From Gemmatimonadota bacterium (GTDB taxonomy: Bacteria; Gemmatimonadota; Gemmatimonadetes; Gemmatimonadales; GWC2-71-9): a stretch of 64,000 nucleotides of DNA. Positions within the stretch are counted from its first letter, which is position 1. Each line of letters starts with the position of its first letter. Below the pieces are notes generated by a model. It ran no database searches. It saw only the letters and a program-made list of their open reading frames with translations, and was not told the origin of the DNA. The stretch lies in contig JBDHKN010000001.1 of the NCBI GenBank assembly GCA_039586365.1, positions 128,001 to 192,000 of the forward strand, read 5' to 3'. The translations under genes were made by a program, and so were the position numbers. This document shows, in pieces, positions 30,084-38,807 of this stretch.

Positions 30084-30373
30084 CTTGCACATTCCGTTGG
30101 AGGAGACAGGTTCTTGTCATGAACGTTTCGTGGTGGGTGGACTGGTGTCAACTGATCCCTAGACCTAAGGCGCGCCGGGTCGCCCACCACGGTCAGCTCG
30201 CAGCAAGGAGCGGTGACGGCCGCATTCGGATGTATTGTTCGTAGCTGGTCCGTTGTTTCAGCACTAAATTGTGGGGCGTCGGCAAGTTGCAGTTCCGTCG
30301 CCGGATCGGCAACCATTTCTGCATGTTAGCCTGGGCATGGACCAGGTCTTCAACCATCGATGAGGAGGTCGGC

Positions 30374-31375
30374 ATGACTGACAGCGAACTTACGCGACGC
30401 GATTTCGTGAAGGTAGGGGCGGTCGGAGCGGCCTCGGTCATCTTGAATACGAATGCTGCCAGTGCCGAGGCGCCCCGCGTCGCCATGCCCGACCGACCGC
30501 TCGGCCGCACCGGCCACCGCGTGAAGCTATTCAGCCTGGGTGGGCAGGCTACACTGGAGATGCAAGGCACCCGGGATCAGTCTATAGAGATCATAAATCG
30601 AGCGATAGATCTGGGAGTCAACTACATTGACACCGCGGCTGCCTACGGTCGTGGGATCAGCCAGACCTACATCGGTGAGGTGATGGCTACCCGGCGCGAC
30701 GAGGTGTTCCTCGCTACCAAGACACACAATCGGACGCGGGATGGGTCCCTGGAGCTGCTGGAGCAGAGCTTGAATCTGCTGCAGACTGACCACCTGGATC
30801 TGTGGCAGCTACATAACGTCCAGCGAAATGAGCAACTCGACACGATCTTTGCAAAAGACGGCGCAGTTCATGCGCTGCAGGAGGCGAAGGAAGAGAAGAT
30901 CGTCCGGTTTCTAGGCATCACCGGACATTTCGATCCCGCCGTGCTCGTTCGGGGACTGAACGGTTTCGACTTCGACACGGTGTTGCTGGCCCTGAATCCC
31001 GCCGATCCTCACTATCTCCCCTTCACTGAGGAACTGCTACCGCTCGCAAACCGGAAGGGACTGGGGATCATAGCAATGAAGATACCGGCACGCGGCCAGC
31101 TGTTCCGTGAGGGGGGAATCACATCTATGAGGGACGCGATGACCTGGGTGATGGCGCACCCGATAAGCACGGTAATAGTGGGCTGTGACACTGTGGAACA
31201 GCTGGAGGAGAACGTCTCAATAGCAGCAAACTTCCAGCCACCATCTGAGCAGGAGTTGGCTCGCATAGCGGGACTAACCGCACACTATCCCAAGGAGGCT
31301 GCTTTCTTCAAGCGTGACGCCGCGGGGTTCCCGGGACGTCGTGACGATGAGGACGATCAGCAGACCGATGACTGA
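30374..31375 (+). CDS. Aldo/keto reductase with Tat signal peptide
   Basis: TRRDFVK, GVNYIDTAAAYG, LATKT, IIAMK; GAGGAGG RBS. Confidence 0.9.
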   Translation: MTDSELTRRDFVKVGAVGAASVILNTNAASAEAPRVAMPDRPLGRTGHRVKLFSLGGQATLEMQGTRDQSIEIINRAIDLGVNYIDTAAAYGRGISQTYIGEVMATRRDEVFLATKTHNRTRDGSLELLEQSLNLLQTDHLDLWQLHNVQRNEQLDTIFAKDGAVHALQEAKEEKIVRFLGITGHFDPAVLVRGLNGFDFDTVLLALNPADPHYLPFTEELLPLANRKGLGIIAMKIPARGQLFREGGITSMRDAMTWVMAHPISTVIVGCDTVEQLEENVSIAANFQPPSEQELARIAGLTAHYPKEAAFFKRDAAGFPGRRDDEDDQQTDD

Positions 31376-31780: not shown

Positions 31781-32125
31781 ATGAAGGCAGAACCGAGTGA
31801 TATCCGCCGTGCCGCCGGGATCTTCAAGGTGTTGTCCCACCCACATCGGCTCAGAATCGCCTGTCAGCTTTCGGACGGTCGCTGTACGACCCAGAAGGAA
31901 CTGATCGAGGAACTGGGCTGGCCCCAATCCACGATGGCCCGCCACCTGTCCGCGCTGCGCGACCGCGGGCTGATCAAAGCCACGCGAAAAGGGCAGGAGG
32001 TGCAGTTGGAGCTGGGCAGTCCTGTCACTCGCCAACTGCTGGAGGCAGTGTGCGTGTGGGTGCATCCTGAAACCGGCGAACGTTTCGCCGGGAGTTTCAA
32101 AATGGCTCCAACCGGGCAAGTGTGA
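31781..32125 (+). CDS. ArsR/SmtB family regulator, SqrR/BigR-like two-Cys type
   Basis: FKVLSHPHRLRIACQL, SHL-type helix (ARHLSALR), C-terminal LLEAVC. Confidence 0.85.
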   Translation: MKAEPSDIRRAAGIFKVLSHPHRLRIACQLSDGRCTTQKELIEELGWPQSTMARHLSALRDRGLIKATRKGQEVQLELGSPVTRQLLEAVCVWVHPETGERFAGSFKMAPTGQV

Positions 32126-34389
32126 TGCGGCGAAGAGAGTTCATACGTATCGGCTCCGGAGCCGCTGGAGCGATGCTCATGGGAGGCCTAGCAAGCGATT
32201 GGTTCAACCTGTACGGCAATCCCCTTCCCGATCCAGGTACTGACGGTGATCGCATAATCCCGTCCTTCTGCGAACTCTGCTTTTGGAAGTGCGGGATATT
32301 GGCTCACGTCAAGAACGGACGTGTCACCAAGATCAAAGGCAATCCCAAAGATCCACTCTCGCACGGTCATCTCTGCCCGCGCGGAGCCGGAGGAACAGGG
32401 CTGCTGTACGATCCGGATCGTCTGAAGAAACCACTGATCAGGGTGAGTAAACGCGGTGGCCAGGAGTTCGAGGAAGTCACGTGGGATGCGGCGCTCAACG
32501 AGGTGGCCGAGAATTTCGAGCGCATCAAGGGGCTGTATGGTGCGTCTGCCTTGGCGCTGTTCTCGCACGGTTACGGCGGCAACTGGATGAAGCACCTATT
32601 CAAAGCCTATGGCTCACCCAACATCGCCGCCCCGTCATATGCGCAGTGCCGCGGCCCCAGGGAAGTCGGCTTCGATTTGACTTTCGGATCGGGAGTTGGG
32701 TCTCCGGAGGTCACTGACATGGCCAACAGCCGGTGCGTCGTGCTCATCGGCAGCCACCTGGGCGAGAACATGCATAACACTCAGGTTCAGGACTTCGCCC
32801 AGGCGATTCGCAATCGTGCGGACATTATCGCTGTCGATCCGCGGTTTTCTGTCGCCGCATCCAAAGCCAACTATTGGCTACCCGTCAAACCTGGAACGGA
32901 CATCGCATTGCTGCTCGCTTGGATGAATGTGATGGTGGGGGAGGGCTTATACGACAGAGAGTACGTCGAGGGGTACACAGTAGGGTTCGAGCAACTGAAG
33001 GCACACGTCGAACCGTACACACCAGAGTGGGCCTACCCTAGGACAGGACTCGAGCCGGAGTTGATTCGGCGGACAGCGCGCGTGATGGCCGCTGCGAAGC
33101 CAGCCACCTTGATCCACCCAGGCAGACACGTAACCTGGTACGGCAATGACACCCAACGGTCTCGAGCGATCGCAATCTTGAACGCACTCCTCGGGTCGTG
33201 GGGTCGCAAAGGTGGGTTCTACATTCCGTCTCAGGTGGAGCTACCCCCTTACAGGTATCCGGGCTATCGGGCGCCGGAGGGCGAGGCAGCGGATCGCCCC
33301 CAACCGAGCGACTACCCCCTGGGTGATGAGGTGCTAGCGCAGGGTGTTTGCGAAGCGACAATCCCGGGCGTGCGAGAGGAATCCGGCATCAAGGGCTGGA
33401 TGGTGTACGGCTCAAACCTGCCGACAACCCTGCCCAATCCCAAGCAGACGTACCAGGCAATCCAAGAACTTGAGTTCTTGGTGACAGTGGACGTGTTGCC
33501 GGCGGAGATCGCTGGCTGGTCGGACGTGGTCCTTCCCGAAGCAACCTACTTGGAGCGGTGTGACGAACTGTTAGCCCCAAGCTATCGGCAGCCCTACATC
33601 GCGGTACGTCAGGAGGTAGTTCCACCGATGTACGACAGCAAGCCCGGTTGGTGGATAGGGCGCGAACTTGGGAAGCGGATAGGGCTTCCCGAGTTTTTTC
33701 CGTGGACAGATTCGATCGAGTATGCCCAGACGCGGCTGCACGAAGCTGGGTACGACTGTGAGGAACTCCAGCGTGATGGCGTCATACTTGGGCCGCCGCA
33801 ACCGCTCTACTTTGAGGAGGGAGCTGCACCGGAGTTCTACACCGACTCTGGGAAGATCGAACTGTACTCCGCACGGCTTGCGAGCTACGGCTTCGATCCC
33901 ATGCCGACGTATCACGAAGCTGAAGTTGAGGAACCACCGACAGGATACTACCGACTGCTCTTCGGTCGGGCCCCGAGCCATACGTTCGGTCGTACGACCA
34001 ACAACCGGTTGTTGTCAGAGGTCTACTCAGAAAACACCGTTTGGGTAAACGGTGCCGTCGCTGGGAAGTGGGGCCTGCAGGACGGTGACCGAGTCTATCT
34101 CCAAAACCAGGACGGAGTGCGCTCATCCTTCTCAGGCCCCGTGAAAGTAACTGAGCGGATTCGTCCCGACGCCGTTTACCTGGTGCACGGCTACGGCCGC
34201 AAGGCGAGAAAACTACGCTTCGTTTACGGCAAGGGTATCGACGACAACGAGCTGATCACACGCTACAAGACAGATCCAGTCATGGGTGGGACCGGAATGA
34301 ACGTGAACTTTGTGACGTTCTTGCGGGCGAGTGAAGTGGATGCGGAACTCGCCGCGCCGGCTGCTGAGACAGAGGTGGAGAATGGTTGA
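32122..34389 (+). CDS. psrA: Polysulfide/thiosulfate reductase catalytic molybdopterin subunit (PsrA/PhsA family)
   Basis: Tat RRREFI, CELCFWKC...HLCPRG FS0 motif, AQCRGPR putative Mo-ligand Cys, DVVLPEATYLER. Confidence 0.8.
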   Translation: MMRRREFIRIGSGAAGAMLMGGLASDWFNLYGNPLPDPGTDGDRIIPSFCELCFWKCGILAHVKNGRVTKIKGNPKDPLSHGHLCPRGAGGTGLLYDPDRLKKPLIRVSKRGGQEFEEVTWDAALNEVAENFERIKGLYGASALALFSHGYGGNWMKHLFKAYGSPNIAAPSYAQCRGPREVGFDLTFGSGVGSPEVTDMANSRCVVLIGSHLGENMHNTQVQDFAQAIRNRADIIAVDPRFSVAASKANYWLPVKPGTDIALLLAWMNVMVGEGLYDREYVEGYTVGFEQLKAHVEPYTPEWAYPRTGLEPELIRRTARVMAAAKPATLIHPGRHVTWYGNDTQRSRAIAILNALLGSWGRKGGFYIPSQVELPPYRYPGYRAPEGEAADRPQPSDYPLGDEVLAQGVCEATIPGVREESGIKGWMVYGSNLPTTLPNPKQTYQAIQELEFLVTVDVLPAEIAGWSDVVLPEATYLERCDELLAPSYRQPYIAVRQEVVPPMYDSKPGWWIGRELGKRIGLPEFFPWTDSIEYAQTRLHEAGYDCEELQRDGVILGPPQPLYFEEGAAPEFYTDSGKIELYSARLASYGFDPMPTYHEAEVEEPPTGYYRLLFGRAPSHTFGRTTNNRLLSEVYSENTVWVNGAVAGKWGLQDGDRVYLQNQDGVRSSFSGPVKVTERIRPDAVYLVHGYGRKARKLRFVYGKGIDDNELITRYKTDPVMGGTGMNVNFVTFLRASEVDAELAAPAAETEVENG

Positions 34390-34930
34390 GAAGCAGTATG
34401 CGATGGTGGTAGACACTCGCACCTGTGTGGGTTGTGGTGCGTGTGTGATCGGCTGCAAGACCGAGAACAGTGTGGCGCAGGGCTACGCGCGGGACTGGGT
34501 GGTCACTGAGACTGCGGGTACCTACCCGTTCCTACAGATGAACGTCAGGTCTGAGCGGTGCAACCATTGTGAAGACGCGCCGTGCGTGACTGTTTGCCCG
34601 ACCGGCGCCTCACACTACGGCCCAGGTCGTACCGTCCAAGTGAACCAGGCCAAGTGTTCGGGTTGCAAGGCGTGCATTGCTGCATGCCCGTACGGTGCCC
34701 GCTTCATCGATCCCCAACTGGGAGCCGTTGATAAGTGCACGTTCTGCGTCCACAGGATCGAGGACGGTATCCCGACCACTTCGTGTCAGGAGATCTGTCC
34801 GACACAGAGCATCTACTTCGGTGATCTGAGTGACACGAACAGCCAAGTCTCCCGGCTCTTGGCCACGCGCGACCACTATACGTTGCTGCCTGACGCTGGG
34901 ACGAAGCCCAAGCACTTCTACGTGAGGTGA
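34382..34930 (+). CDS. psrB: 4Fe-4S electron-transfer subunit (PsrB/NrfC family)
   Basis: CVGCGACVIGC, CNHCEDAPCVTVCP, CSGCKACIAACP, CTFC...CQEICP. Confidence 0.85.
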   Translation: MVEKQYAMVVDTRTCVGCGACVIGCKTENSVAQGYARDWVVTETAGTYPFLQMNVRSERCNHCEDAPCVTVCPTGASHYGPGRTVQVNQAKCSGCKACIAACPYGARFIDPQLGAVDKCTFCVHRIEDGIPTTSCQEICPTQSIYFGDLSDTNSQVSRLLATRDHYTLLPDAGTKPKHFYVR

Positions 34931-34940
34931 GTAGGCTACC

Positions 34941-35903
34941 ATGAATGAGATCACGACGACGCGACACAATCCTTTGATTGACCCAGTGCTTCACGTGTGG
35001 CATGGCGAGGTCGCGCTGTATTTGTTTCTCGGCGGCGTAGTGGCGGGGATAATGGTGCTCTCCGGGATGTGGCTGCTCCGCAGGCCTATTCCTGAACGCT
35101 CCCGCGCCCTGTCATTCTTGCCGTGGGCCAGTCCGGCACTCCTTTCGGTGGGCATGTTCTTTCTCTGGCTAGACTTGGAACATCCGTGGAATGCCTACCG
35201 CTTCTACCTGGCCTTTCGAGCGAGCTCTCCCATGTCTTGGGGCGCCTGGATTCTGATTGCCATCTACCCCGCTTCGGTTCTGCTAGCTTGAACGGGTTCT
35301 CCGCCGGACTTCCGCCAGCGCTGGGAACAGCGCTTAGCGTTGCTTCCGCCGGTTGCACGGCTTGGTCGCTGGGCGGTTCAACACGTCCGACAGCTTGCGC
35401 TAATCAACGTGCTGACCGGCGCTGCCCTCGGCCTCTACACAGGTGTTCTCCTGGGGACGATGGCCGCGCGCCCACTGTGGAATTCTGCGATCCTCGGCCC
35501 ACTGTTCCTCGTGTCCGGTCTCTCCACGGGGGCGGCCTTTCTTCTCCTGTATCGCCTTGGCGATCAGGAGCGCATTCTGCTGGGCAGGGTCGATATGGGG
35601 TTGATTGTTGCTGAATTGTGCTTGCTCGCGCTCTGGCTGATCGGCCTTGCAAGTGGTGGCATCGCTGCCAGAGCGGCCGTTTCCATCTTCTTCGGAGGGT
35701 CGTACACGGCGGCGTTTTGGACGCTGGTAGTGGCTCTGGGACTCGTCACACCATTGATCGGAGAGTGGATCGAGCATCGCAATCGCGTCGTCCCAGGCCG
35801 CGCCATCGCCATACTGGTTCTGGTCGGTGGCTTCGCACTGCGTTGGATCGTGGTCTTTGCCGGCCAGCATGCACGGTGGGTTGGCGAAGTCGCATTGCGA
35901 TAA
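34941..35903 (+). CDS. psrC: NrfD/PsrC membrane anchor with an in-frame TGA at 35289-35291
   Basis: The two ORF-track pieces share one frame: ALYLFLGG, DLEHP, SPMSWGAW before the stop; YTGVLL, RPLWNS, SGLSTGAA, LRWIVV after it. Confidence 0.8.
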
Positions 35904-35918
35904 GAGGAAGAGAATCTC

Positions 35919-36431
35919 ATGACTGCAAGACCATACTGGAATCCGTATCTCGCCGGCGCGCTATTGGGACTGGCCCTGCTGGGCGCATTCCTGATTGCCG
36001 GACAAGGGCTAGGCGCCAGTGCGTTTCCCAAGAGGGTACTGGCCGTGGCAGGTAGCGAGGTAGCGCCGCAGTGGACGGCGCGGAATCCATCGCTTGGCCA
36101 ATACGTGGAAGATGACTCCAACCCGCTGCGAAACTGGCTCGTAGTTGAGGTGATTGGTGTGGTGTTGGGTGGGTTAATCGGCGCCCTCAGCGCCGGACGG
36201 CTCAAGGCCACCGTTGAGAAGGGTCCCAACATCTCGGTGAGGGGAAGGCTAGGCTATGCCTTGGGTGGTGGGATCATCATGGGGTTTGCAGCGGCGCTGG
36301 CCCGGGGCTGCACTTCCGGGCAGGCTCTCAGCGGCGGTGCCCTACTGGCGACCGGTAGTTGGATCTTCATGATGATGTTCTTTGCCGGGGCCTATGCGTT
36401 CGCGTACGTGGTTAGGAGGCAATGGCTATGA
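35919..36431 (+). CDS. YeeE/YedE family sulfur-compound transporter (half-size)
   Basis: YWNPYLAG, LARGCTSGQALSG. Confidence 0.88.
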   Translation: MTARPYWNPYLAGALLGLALLGAFLIAGQGLGASAFPKRVLAVAGSEVAPQWTARNPSLGQYVEDDSNPLRNWLVVEVIGVVLGGLIGALSAGRLKATVEKGPNISVRGRLGYALGGGIIMGFAAALARGCTSGQALSGGALLATGSWIFMMMFFAGAYAFAYVVRRQWL

Positions 36432-37624
36432 GTGACGCGGTCTTCCCAATCGTCTTTGCTTCAGAGGAAGCACGTCTCCTTACGGCAATCTTACTGGGAT
36501 TCCTGTTTGGGTTTGCCCTCGAACGAGCCGGTTTTGGCAACGCGCGCAAGCTCGTCGGTCAATTCTATCTGCACGACATGACGGTTTTCAAGGTGATGTT
36601 CACTGCCGTGTTGGTGGCGACGGTTGGACTCTATTCGTTGTCCGCCTTCGGGTTCTTGGATATGTCGCGCATGTGGGTCAACCCGACCTTTGTTTGGGCC
36701 CAGTTGATCGGCGGATTCATGTTGGGGATCGGGTTCATCATGAGTGGCCTGTGTCCGGGCACGTCTGTAGTATCGGCCGCCTCCGGACGATGGGATGGAC
36801 TGGTGACGTTCGCTGGGATGTTCGTCGGTTCGTTCGCCTTCGCATTGTTCAGCGATTGGTTCCCGATCCTGGTGCGGCTGTACGAAGGTGGTTCCCTCGG
36901 TGTGTCAATGCTGCCACAACTCCTGGGACTATCTGTCCCATGGTTCATCCTGGGAGTCGTGCTTCTTGCAGGCGCAGCGTTCGTTGGTGCTGAGAGGGTC
37001 GAGCAGATCTTCCAGCGGGAGCAGCGGCCAGTAGAACTGACACCTGAACCCACTCGCCGTGCGCGGCGGTACAAATTCGGTCTGGCCGGTAGCCTAGCAT
37101 TGGTGGCATTGGTGGCCTCGGGAGCGTCAGCACCGCGCGTCGAGCAACCGCAGGTCCGGGCGGTGGAGATCGCACCGCTCGAGCTGGCTGAGGCGATCAT
37201 TGCCAAGAACCCCGGGCTGCTGATTCTGGACCTCCGCAGTCAGACCGATTCGCCGGGCTTGGTGATACCTGGTGCAATACCGATCGGCCCCGACCATACA
37301 GCCGTACAGTATCTGCAAGGAGCTGCGCCTGAGACGGTTGTGGTGCTCTGCGACGAAACTGGGACCATGGCCACCGTGCCGACCGAGTGGCCGCAGAAGC
37401 TCGACTACCGGATCGTGGCCGGCGGTATTGAGGGCTGGCGAGCTGAGGTGTTGACTCCGATCCAAGCCATCAGCTCGGCACTAGCAGAACGGGAATTTGT
37501 GGCTCGGCAGAACCAGATTGCGGGCTTCTTCTCCGGGGCGGCGGTACGCCCAGCGGCGGTGAGTGCTCCGCCGGTGGTGAGCACTCTCGGTCCGAAGAAG
37601 AAAAAGAAATCGATGGGTTGCTGA
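36422..37624 (+). CDS. YeeE/YedE domain fused to a rhodanese-like domain and a C-terminal Cys tail
   Basis: FGFALERAGF, GLCPGT; then ILDLR..IPGA..VVLCD..AGGIEGW; ends PKKKKKSMGC. Confidence 0.85.
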   Translation: MAMSDAVFPIVFASEEARLLTAILLGFLFGFALERAGFGNARKLVGQFYLHDMTVFKVMFTAVLVATVGLYSLSAFGFLDMSRMWVNPTFVWAQLIGGFMLGIGFIMSGLCPGTSVVSAASGRWDGLVTFAGMFVGSFAFALFSDWFPILVRLYEGGSLGVSMLPQLLGLSVPWFILGVVLLAGAAFVGAERVEQIFQREQRPVELTPEPTRRARRYKFGLAGSLALVALVASGASAPRVEQPQVRAVEIAPLELAEAIIAKNPGLLILDLRSQTDSPGLVIPGAIPIGPDHTAVQYLQGAAPETVVVLCDETGTMATVPTEWPQKLDYRIVAGGIEGWRAEVLTPIQAISSALAEREFVARQNQIAGFFSGAAVRPAAVSAPPVVSTLGPKKKKKSMGC

Positions 37625-37633
37625 CCCTGGGAG

Positions 37634-38458
37634 CTAGCTCGCTGGTTTCCTGGCTCTGATGAAGGCGCTCATGAACCGACCGTCTATCTGAGATGCTACT
37701 GACTCTACATCCAGACCGGCCCCTGAGAGGAAAGTCCTGGCGTCGTCCACGCTGTAGATGCGTGTGGGTTCAATGGCGGCGTCTTGGAAGCCTACCTCTT
37801 GCAGAAGCCGCTCGAATTCGGACTCCTCAAGAGCGCCGGCTATGCAGCCCGTCCACAGTTCCACACTCTGCCTAATGTCTTGCGGCACCTCACCTCGAAC
37901 GACTACGTCCGATACGGCGAACCTGCCGCCCGGCCTAAGCACCCTGTAGGCCTCGCGCAACGCCCGCTGCTTGTCGGCGGAGAGGTTAATCACGCAGTTG
38001 GAGATCACGACGTCGACTGAGTTGTCGGGCAGTGGGATTGCCTCGATCTCACCCTTGAGAAACTCTACATTTCGGATGCCTGCCGCGGCAGCGTTTCTTC
38101 GGGCGAGCTCGAGCATCTCGTCGGTCATGTCCAGACCGTAGGCCTTGCCCTGGGGGCCAACGCGGCGTGCGGAGAGTAGCACATCGATCCCGCCGCCCGA
38201 TCCAAGGTCAAGCACTGCTTCACCGGGGGACAACTGAGCCAGCGCCGTGGGATTGCCGCACCCAAGTGACGCAACAACGGCGGGCTTCGGGAGGCCGTCG
38301 GCTTCCTCTGCGCTATAAAGATCCGTTGTGATCGGATCACAGCAGTGACTGCCTGTAGCTGAACCACAGCACGAGTTGGATTGACCGCGCTCGATGCGCG
38401 CTGCGGCGTGTCCGTACTTCTCTCTAACGAAGTCCCTGACCTCTTGTTCTCTTCTCAT
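37634..38458 (-). CDS. arsM: Arsenite S-adenosylmethionine methyltransferase
   Basis: VREKYG, SLGCGNP, LDLGSGGGID, ISNCVINLS, WTGCIAGAL. Confidence 0.93.
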   Translation of the reverse strand: MRREQEVRDFVREKYGHAAARIERGQSNSCCGSATGSHCCDPITTDLYSAEEADGLPKPAVVASLGCGNPTALAQLSPGEAVLDLGSGGGIDVLLSARRVGPQGKAYGLDMTDEMLELARRNAAAAGIRNVEFLKGEIEAIPLPDNSVDVVISNCVINLSADKQRALREAYRVLRPGGRFAVSDVVVRGEVPQDIRQSVELWTGCIAGALEESEFERLLQEVGFQDAAIEPTRIYSVDDARTFLSGAGLDVESVASQIDGRFMSAFIRARKPAS

Positions 38459-38462
38459 GTCA

Positions 38463-38807
38463 CTAATAGCAAGGTGTATGGGTTGGTGCTGCCTCGATGC
38501 AGCAGTCGGCAAACTGTTCTGCCGACGGGGTTGGCTGCAGGAAATTGCTCACTTGTTCAAGCACGTTGCAGCAGGCCCTGTAGAACACCCAACGGCCCTT
38601 CCGGCGAGCGTGGATGAGGCCAGCGTTTCTCAAGGTCTTGAGGTGGAACGACAGAAGCGGTTGACCAGCTCCCAGCGCGTCTTTGATCTCGCATTGACAA
38701 CGCTCGCCATCACCGAGCAGCACCAGTATCCGGAGGCGGGTCTCGTCCGATAAGGCTCGGAGACGGCTCGCGAGAAAGCCACATTGCTCAGATCTCAGGG
38801 AACGCAC
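38463..38807 (-). CDS. arsR: ArsR family As(III)-responsive repressor
   Basis: ALSDETRLRIL, ERCQCEI, LSFHLKTL, GRWVFY, extra CC pairs; upstream of arsM. Confidence 0.85.
   Translation of the reverse strand: MRSLRSEQCGFLASRLRALSDETRLRILVLLGDGERCQCEIKDALGAGQPLLSFHLKTLRNAGLIHARRKGRWVFYRACCNVLEQVSNFLQPTPSAEQFADCCIEAAPTHTPCY

Follow-up and report, generated by a model that had tools for sequence, protein, structure and literature searches.

In Wolinella succinogenes the reductase PsrABC is accompanied by the periplasmic rhodanese Sud, and in Aquifex SreABC is accompanied by SbdP; both partners are soluble catalytic rhodaneses with a cysteine in the active-site loop, and both bind polysulfide sulfur in the periplasm and supply it to an enzyme of the Psr type. 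Descriptions also exist of Psr operons that have separate rhodaneses, and of YeeE genes elsewhere in the genome (for example PMC12142623, PMC13490349, PMC13047784). The subject of this work is a six-gene operon at positions 31781–37624 of a stretch of 64,000 nucleotides of DNA from a Gemmatimonadota bacterium (GenBank assembly GCA_039586365.1, contig JBDHKN010000001.1, positions 128,001 to 192,000 of the forward strand), this whole stretch being called the window below. Judged by sequence comparison, and with confidence that we would call even, the operon would encode a Psr-type, NrfD-anchored periplasmic molybdenum reductase together with an accessory pair that presents sulfane-sulfur compounds on a tethered cysteine. 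The six genes are the following.

31781–32125, + strand: gene for an ArsR/SmtB-family regulator, product of 114 amino acids (Pfam HTH_20 and HTH_5).
32122–34389, + strand: psrA, catalytic subunit with molybdenum bis(pyranopterin guanine dinucleotide), exported by twin-arginine translocation, 755 amino acids (Pfam PF04879, Molybdop_Fe4S4; PF00384, Molybdopterin; PF01568, Molydop_binding).
34382–34930, + strand: psrB, four-cluster ferredoxin subunit (Fer4_11, E 6e-20, and other 4Fe-4S domains).
34941–35903, + strand: psrC, quinol-oxidising membrane anchor of the NrfD type, 320 codons with one in-frame stop (Pfam NrfD).
35919–36431, + strand: yeeE1, homologue of the C-terminal half of YeeE/TsuA (PmpA-like), 170 amino acids (Pfam Sulf_transp).
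36422–37624, + strand: yeeE2 fusion, N-terminal half of YeeE joined to a rhodanese fold, 400 amino acids (Pfam Sulf_transp and Rhodanese).

The original prediction of one operon of regulator, molybdenum enzyme, 4Fe-4S subunit, NrfD anchor, YeeE, and YeeE-rhodanese was borne out: all six genes lie on the + strand at these positions with Pfam and NCBIfam matches. Overlaps join arsR to psrA (4 nucleotides), psrA to psrB (8 nucleotides, the ATG of psrB at 34382 lying inside the end of psrA), and yeeE1 to yeeE2 (10 nucleotides); the other gaps are of 10–15 nucleotides.

The N-terminus of PsrA carries the twin-arginine motif RRREFI, and the motif of the FS0 [4Fe-4S] cluster reads C50-x2-C53-x3-C57...C85. 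In a PDB search, residues 2–736 matched Thermus thermophilus PsrA (PDB 2VPW/2VPZ chain A) with 696 bits (E 6e-208), the runners-up being acetylene hydratase (209 bits), formate dehydrogenases, and ArrA (136 bits). C176, H149, and R335 align with C173, H145, and R332 of the Thermus enzyme, and all three are invariant in 21 homologues; C173 we take to be the molybdenum ligand of the Thermus protein, and the aligned histidine and arginine to be active-site residues. Among NCBIfam models PhsA ranked first (482 bits, below its cut-off of 694), followed by Fdh-alpha (249), DmsA (231), ArrA (130), and TtrA (49); with 130 bits against a cut-off of 1600 on the ArrA model NF041714, the protein lies outside ArrAB. 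The product of psrB stayed below the cut-offs of the NCBIfam models NrfC, ArrB, DsrO, and TtrB. The family of PsrA is large and strongly conserved, with more than 120 clusters of 69–96% identity.

A heme-less, eight-helix NrfD-type anchor separates Psr from Phs (PMC12949373), and the anchor predicted here is of the NrfD type (Pfam NrfD), not the five-helix di-heme cytochrome b of PhsC (Ni_hydr_CYTB). The catalytic subunit is accordingly placed, on alignment scores, in the Psr/Phs type, as had been predicted, and by its anchor in the Psr type rather than the Phs type. The original prediction proposed to check the assignment within the DMSO-reductase family by a phylogeny. The scores lie nearer Psr/Phs than ArrA or TtrA, but a phylogeny does not separate Psr, Phs, and Srr: PsrA, PhsA, and SrrA mix in trees, and srr is told apart by the extra genes srrD, srrE, and srrF (PMC12949373). 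With PsrABC of T. thermophilus (PDB 2VPW, 2VPX, 2VPY, 2VPZ) the operon shares all three subunits, including a four-cluster PsrB, an NrfD-type PsrC, and the conserved cysteine, histidine, and arginine in PsrA; beyond these subunits it encodes a split YeeE channel with a tethered rhodanese fold and cysteine arm, and an ArsR-type regulator.

Relatives of the accessory pair were collected in a scan of one genome per species with an alignment of the fusion, which gave 206 confirmed relatives; 80 loci were kept. The product of yeeE1 covers positions 175–309 of the 310 of the Sulf_transp profile (positions 237–327 of the TsuA model), and residues 1–200 of the yeeE2 product cover positions 3–193. With 76.9 and 69.9 bits both halves exceed the Pfam cut-off of 27, and both are matched by the TsuA equivalog models far below cut-off (49 against 400 bits); the best NCBIfam match of the yeeE2 product is the selenium YedE model TIGR04112 (31.8 bits). 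The sole cysteine of the yeeE1 product, C131 in the motif GCTSG, is conserved in 80 of 80 loci, and the channel cysteine of the yeeE2 product, C111 in the motif GLCPGTS, in 67 of 67. In StYeeE, C91 and C293 are essential and C22 is not; its N-terminus is external and its C-terminus internal, and between the two halves the topology is reversed by helix H7 (PMC7449682). Both halves found here keep equivalents of the essential cysteines (C111, C131), in agreement with the earlier claim of YeeE proteins with conserved cysteines. In a Foldseek search with the whole fusion only rhodaneses matched at E <= 0.001, and no YeeE structure was among the matches listed, so that the YeeE assignment rests on Pfam and on conserved residues.

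The same split is described for PmpA (C-terminal half) and PmpB (N-terminal half), for which a heterodimer is proposed (PMC11582611). By analogy with this proposal, and from the adjacent, overlapping genes, the two YeeE halves of the operon would form one TsuA-like channel as a heterodimer. The pair resembles YeeE/TsuA with YeeD/TsuB, and PmpA/PmpB, in the Sulf_transp fold, in both essential cysteines, and in a division into C-half and N-half genes as in PmpA/PmpB. It differs from YeeE/TsuA and PmpA/PmpB in that the N-terminal half retains H7 and runs on into an anchor helix, a rhodanese fold, and an arm; from YeeD, which is cytoplasmic and TusA-like, in that the cysteine partner is predicted to be periplasmic and is covalently tethered; and from YeeE/TsuA in a genomic context that is respiratory, not assimilatory.

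The yeeE2 fusion was modelled with AlphaFold2 on an alignment of 41 sequences (mean predicted local distance difference test score, pLDDT, of 77). Helices are predicted at residues 15–35, 41–48, 54–75, 91–108, 112–120, 124–146, and 172–200, the last being H7; after this YeeE half the chain continues with a helix (212–234), an alpha/beta domain (248–344, pLDDT about 90), a helix (354–371), and a disordered tail (372–400). The parts of the gene are as follows.

36422–37021, + strand: residues 1–200, N-terminal half of YeeE (PmpB-like) with the central reversing helix H7 (Sulf_transp profile).
37055–37123, + strand: residues 212–234, extra transmembrane helix, preceded by an Arg/Lys-rich linker (AlphaFold2).
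37163–37456, + strand: residues 248–345, rhodanese-fold domain (Pfam Rhodanese, 24.3 bits; AlphaFold2; Foldseek).
37535–37621, + strand: disordered Pro/Ala-rich tail ending in KKKKKSMGC-COOH (pLDDT below 50 for residues 379–400).
37619–37621, + strand: C400, proposed carrier cysteine (C-terminal cysteine kept in 67 of 67).

The alpha/beta domain is matched by single-domain rhodaneses with Foldseek template modelling scores of 0.63–0.66, normalised to the target. Position 310 (37349–37351), a cysteine in the window protein, lies at the rhodanese catalytic position and aligns, weakly (E 0.23), with the catalytic cysteine of 3FOJ. Across the 67 complete family members this position holds Tyr in 26, Val in 24, Ile in six, Phe in six, Met in three, and Cys in two, the window protein being one of the two, so that a cysteine in the active-site loop, as in rhodaneses of the Sud/GlpE type, is found in two of 67. 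A cysteine within the last three residues, preceded by glycine and a run of Lys/Arg, is present in all 67 fusion proteins, and is the only invariant cysteine outside the channel. The conserved thiol is therefore on the flexible arm, not in the rhodanese loop, and the claim that a catalytic rhodanese like Sud feeds the reductase was not upheld for the family. A cysteine at position 310 is also found in the 91%-identical relative P0121 and in one Latescibacterota protein; C310 may be a lineage-specific regain of the loop thiol.

The tail ends in ...KKKKxGGC in Gemmatimonadota, and in ...GGGCS, ...GGCSG, or ...GGGCG in Myxococcota, Bdellovibrionota, Planctomycetota, and others. In the Myxococcota and Bdellovibrionota fusions an additional cysteine pair, CX9C, occurs early in the rhodanese-like domain (L084, L089, L090, L092, L093, L098, L100, L102, L103, and L104); in these versions psrB and psrC enclose the YeeE pair. 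On a Kapaibacterium chromosome (L095, 7363–9228) the fusion is naturally split into three genes, for the C-terminal half of YeeE, for the N-terminal half with H7 (199 amino acids), and for a signal-anchored rhodanese-like protein of 224 amino acids ending in ...KPKREGC; the N-terminal signal-anchor of the latter is the same extra helix as in the fusion. Residues 190–218 of the window fusion contain eight Lys/Arg, and its rhodanese domain is acidic. The extra helix is predicted to return the chain from the cytoplasm and to place the rhodanese domain and the tail in the periplasm; the placing is based on the published YeeE topology, on H7 and the extra helix, on the Lys/Arg-rich linker, and on the three-gene version in Kapaibacterium.

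SoxY carries the sulfur intermediates of the Sox pathway on the cysteine of its C-terminal GGCGG (PMC6067878). The fusion resembles it in a Gly-flanked cysteine at the extreme C-terminus of a flexible peptide in the (here predicted) periplasm; it is unlike SoxY in its rhodanese fold, in the lack of a SoxZ-like gene in the operon, in the run of lysines before the cysteine, and in its partners, which are reductases (Psr, Otr) and not the oxidative SoxXA, SoxB, and SoxCD. By this analogy the fusion may work like SoxY, of which family it is not a member. From Sud and SbdP it differs in that the domain is tethered in the membrane to half a YeeE channel, with the loop cysteine rare and the invariant cysteine at the end of the tail.

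Of the 80 loci, 63 have all five structural genes together, and 70 have one psr gene or more beside the YeeE pair. Four of the 10 loci without psr end at most 50 nucleotides upstream of yeeE1 and are uninformative, which leaves 76 informative loci. In ten loci the order is psrA-psrB-yeeE1-yeeE2-psrC, with the YeeE pair inside the psr operon; one of the ten is the cultured Anaeromyxobacter terrae SG22 (L104). By gene order as sampled here, the arrangement is far more frequent than chance, with all five genes in 63 of 80 loci. Record titles, from which the phyla are taken and which can be wrong for bins, name about eight: Gemmatimonadota (the majority), Acidobacteriota, Latescibacterota, Bacteroidota (including Ignavibacteria and Kapaibacteria), Myxococcota, Bdellovibrionota, Planctomycetota, and one Hyphomicrobiales bin. 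Few Gemmatimonadota carry the module, a near-full-length fusion occurring in about seven of 401 genomes sampled evenly; in the window's own genus most genomes have the fusion.

Otr is known as a reductase that cleaves S–S bonds. Three of the six informative loci without psr lack the rhodanese part, and in the other three (L086, L088, L101) the YeeE pair follows an Otr-type cluster, which encodes a cytochrome c of the octaheme tetrathionate-reductase family (TIGR04315, 568 bits, cut-off 375), a protein of about 700 amino acids with six to seven CxxCH motifs, for which no Pfam family and no PDB relative was found, and a PhsC-like cytochrome b. At a further locus (L082) an Otr-type cluster and a psr module lie side by side in divergent orientation. 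The four clusters, in Planctomycetota and Anaerolineae bins and with fusion tails in GGGCG, are located as follows.

L088, 1–5779: Otr-type cluster.
L101, 671–6688: Otr-type cluster.
L086, 5–4028: Otr-type cluster.
L082, 37–3319: Otr-type cluster.

Judged by gene neighbourhood, the YeeE pair serves two unrelated periplasmic quinol-linked reductases, Psr and Otr; its presence beside the S–S-cleaving Otr also argues for sulfur compounds as the substrates. In the open-access literature, as far as accessible, no description was found of the fusion of a YeeE half with a rhodanese, of the invariant terminal cysteine, or of the obligate linkage to Psr or Otr clusters; this is an absence among open papers, and no proof that the fusion is unpublished.

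The regulator passes the NCBIfam model HTH_metalloreg (62.7 bits, cut-off 55). Its nearest solved relatives are Escherichia coli YgaV, BigR, and SqrR, whose cysteine in helix alpha-2 aligns with C28; C28 and C91, the latter near the C-terminus, are each kept in 27 of 28 upstream orthologues. C91 lies about one helical turn earlier than what we take to be the second cysteine of BigR and SqrR. Like BigR, SqrR, and YgaV, the regulator thus has the aligned alpha-2 cysteine and a second conserved cysteine near the C-terminus, and is co-transcribed with a sulfur operon; unlike BigR itself, it falls well short of the cut-off of the BigR equivalog model. From these alignments a repressor that senses persulfide can reasonably be predicted, and the sensing of sulfur foreseen in the original prediction would fit the resemblance to the persulfide sensors and the conserved cysteine pair.

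The coding frame of psrC is interrupted once.

35289–35291, + strand: in-frame TGA, codon 117 of psrC, at the end of predicted transmembrane helix 3 (TM3); beyond it the reading frame stays open as far as the normal stop.

Pfam NrfD matches both pieces, residues 19–108 covering profile positions 10–101 and the second piece positions 129–309. Codon 117 is TGG in all five close relatives that share the operon (four of the same genus, one of another genus), and the TGA of the window differs from it by one G-to-A change. Among 70 further genome loci, 42 have Trp at the position, 19 Leu, and nine other residues, with zero stops at it; two stops flagged among these loci are the natural gene ends. 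In 37 metagenome loci, the best of which matches the window psrC at 74% identity, there are 34 Trp, two Leu, one gap, and zero stops. A stop at codon 117 is thus present in none of 107 other loci, and Trp in 76. Four of the six operon genes end in TGA, which is therefore a true stop in this genome, by which an alternative genetic code was ruled out. Selenocysteine is unlikely and was rejected likewise: the relatives have Trp or Leu, not Cys, at the position, with Trp as the ancestral state, and the RNA downstream of the TGA folds no better than shuffled sequence (z -0.37), with no structure like a selenocysteine insertion sequence (SECIS).

On these alignments the TGA is a private nonsense change or an error of sequencing or assembly. 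The complex would work in this organism only if the TGA is an error, is read through, or leaves two psrC pieces that still assemble. Behind the worry, expressed in the original prediction, that psrC is truncated stands a single in-frame TGA, private to the assembly, in a frame that runs on to the normal end. That a real nonsense change removes TM4–TM8, and that the module is dead or decaying here as a recent pseudo-operon, appears doubtful, though it has to be taken seriously. In its favour, the assembly has the stop in frame, the genome uses TGA as a true stop, no SECIS-like structure follows this TGA, and none of the 107 other loci shares it. Against decay stand the single G-to-A step from the TGG of all five close relatives; the intact state of every other operon gene and of the downstream psrC frame, at 66–72% identity to the relatives; the quality of the host assembly, a draft of 132 contigs with 86% completeness, in which a consensus error or a minority variant is plausible; and a TTG at 35340, a possible restart for the piece covering TM4–TM8.

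The operon is flanked by genes without relation to sulfur (aldo-keto reductase, histidine phosphatase, BNR-repeat protein, rhomboid protease); the module is therefore self-contained, as was originally proposed. The aldo-keto reductase gene upstream (30269–31375, + strand) is kept at this position in only one relative (L023, identical with L026) and is probably outside the module. A search of the region upstream of arsR gave no promoter-like or terminator-like site and, for an operator, only one GC palindrome of 10 nucleotides. On the other side an arsR-arsM unit (37634–38807, - strand) is convergent with the psr operon, with 9 nucleotides between the two stop codons; its arsenite methyltransferase ArsM scores above cut-off (NCBIfam NF008823, 368 bits) and has an ArsR gene of its own (38463–38807, - strand). 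Relatives within the genus have the unit next to the operon as well; at the locus of G024, a relative outside the genus, arsM had no match. The convergent orientation, the separate arsR, and the lack of an arsM match at the G024 locus rule out arsM as a part of the module.

Relatives of the host in its genus are recorded as Gemmatimonadota, in line with the probable Gemmatimonadota genome of the original prediction. The host genome contains two heme-copper oxidase genes and, on another contig (G000 contig C97, 42000–61999; L145), a dissimilatory sulfur locus with a qmoA-like gene (HdrA/QmoA-like), qmoC, sat, dsrC, dsrT, dsrMKJOP, and dsrAB, together with a dsrL-like NAD(P)-binding protein, a cobyrinic-acid-diamide-synthase-like gene (dsrN), and a TauE/SafE exporter. 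Searches of the host genome for DsrD and DsrH gave no match. DsrA is present in four of 61 relatives, and among the module-carrying genomes of the genus in G000, G002, and G006. A strict link between module and Dsr is ruled out by G024 (98% complete), which has the module and no DsrA, and by G040, which has DsrA and no module. The earlier statement that Gemmatimonadota are not usually regarded as sulfur respirers is weakened by this full qmo-sat-dsrC-dsrTMKJOP-dsrAB locus; the module itself is rare in the phylum. A match to SelD on the same contig (171022–171954, - strand; 358.6 bits, above cut-off) contains one in-frame TGA, and the organism probably makes selenoproteins.

For the operon as a sulfane-sulfur reductase with a tethered carrier the following scheme is proposed. 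The YeeE halves would assemble antiparallel into one TsuA-like channel, and the extra helix would put the rhodanese scaffold and the arm in the periplasm, beside PsrA. The thiolate of the arm would attack S–S bonded substrates (S8 or polysulfide, possibly tetrathionate or thiosulfate) and would carry the sulfur as a persulfide or thiosulfonate, resembling the GGCGG arm of SoxY or Sud in Wolinella; PsrA would reduce the arm-bound sulfur with electrons from menaquinol via PsrC and PsrB; and the YeeE channel would pass sulfur species inward, the cysteine pair of the regulator sensing them and derepressing the operon. We put forward tentatively, and as the less probable, wider form of this proposal, that Psr and Otr in at least eight phyla may take a protein-bound sulfur chain on a SoxY-like arm, not free polysulfide or polythionate, the arm being attached to a rhodanese scaffold that is catalytically silent and is itself fused to one half of a YeeE channel.

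Several observations weigh against this scheme. Substrate, direction of reaction, and topology are all deduced. Of the components, psrC is interrupted by a stop in this assembly; the matches of the YeeE halves to the selenium YedE and to the TsuA models are about equally weak; the window protein has a cysteine at the rhodanese catalytic position, by which the domain could be active in this lineage; and a positively charged substrate funnel would be expected to repel the Lys-rich arm, the outer cavity of YeeE being described as positive (PMC7449682). On the BigR model, whose cut-off is 155 bits, the regulator reaches 43, its C91 lies one residue beyond the region aligned with the solved relatives, and of 52 loci with enough flank only 30 have an arsR-like gene immediately upstream of psrA. 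The use of adjoining rhodanese genes as a marker of selenite reducers (PMC8528874) counts likewise, and in favour of a selenium substrate.

Selenite respiration is the main rival on the substrate: the operon would then encode an Srr-like respiratory reductase for selenite, or for another chalcogen oxyanion, with a rhodanese-like domain and thiol arm that handle selenium as selenotrisulfide or perselenide and a YedE-like channel that moves it. We regard this as unlikely. The mixing of PsrA, PhsA, and SrrA in trees, with srr set apart only by srrD, srrE, and srrF (PMC12949373), speaks for it, and the likeness to SrrABCDEF of Bacillus selenitireducens includes, besides a PsrA-like catalytic subunit that phylogeny does not separate, rhodanese-domain proteins, which SrrE and SrrF are (PMC12949373, PMC12481199); this second likeness is one of domain names, SrrE and SrrF being compared by description, and no chaperone family, as a stand-in for SrrD, was found among the six operon proteins in the Pfam scan. 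The weak matches of both YeeE halves to selenium YedE models and the use of selenocysteine in the genome (SelD with an in-frame TGA) also favour selenium; the same pair of channel and arm also partners the octaheme tetrathionate-reductase-type cluster, and the nearest solved relatives of the regulator are sensors of sulfide and persulfide, both of which favour sulfur. The arsM-type methyltransferase gene that ends 9 nucleotides from the operon, convergent with it, also speaks for selenite; against this, it has its own arsR and has no match at the G024 locus.

Two other readings keep sulfur as the substrate and change what is done with it. In one, which we hold to be distinctly improbable, the system would work in the oxidative direction or for import, sulfide or polysulfide loaded on the arm passing through YeeE to Dsr or to assimilation, with Psr as a quinone-reducing dehydrogenase. 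The two heme-copper oxidase genes and the full qmo-sat-dsr locus would suit such a role, as would DsrA in the module-carrying genomes G000, G002, and G006; the occurrence of module and DsrA apart, in G024 and G040, does not, and with neither DsrH nor DsrD found the direction of Dsr is not fixed. We know of no biochemical precedent for Psr working oxidatively, and the alternative partner, the Otr-type cytochrome, is known as a reductase. A precedent for the import step is given by SoxT proteins, which are YeeE-like and are proposed to import sulfane sulfur for cytoplasmic oxidation (PMC11582611). In the other reading, which has very little in its favour by our estimate, the YeeE pair would be a plain assimilatory thiosulfate importer of the TsuA/TsuB kind, the rhodanese standing in for YeeD, with no mechanistic tie to psr. 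TsuA models do match both halves, and YeeD is an essential partner of YeeE that binds thiosulfate on a cysteine (PMC11073785, PMC13047784); against this reading, the predicted location of the partner domain is the periplasm and not the cytoplasm, 10 loci have the YeeE pair between psrB and psrC, and the pair stands almost always by a periplasmic reductase cluster (70 with psr and three with otr among the 76 informative loci).

How Psr-type enzymes obtain sulfur that is poorly soluble or unstable, and how sulfane sulfur crosses the cytoplasmic membrane, are unsettled questions of the field. The module links both at the level of genes, in that the respiratory reductase, the YeeE channel, and the tethered invariant cysteine occur together in many phyla; together with the complete dsr locus, it marks a Gemmatimonadota lineage equipped for dissimilatory sulfur metabolism. 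The hypothesis of a tethered carrier is directly testable, since the module is carried by a cultured Anaeromyxobacter. If the substrate is indeed protein-bound, one membrane machine would capture insoluble or labile sulfur, reduce it, and pass sulfur species inward for sensing, and would be the reductive counterpart of the carrier principle of Sox. If the arm is the carrier, a new definition of the substrate would be required for the whole clade that is annotated as thiosulfate or polysulfide reductase, and a diagnostic marker would become available for annotating these genes in metagenomes.

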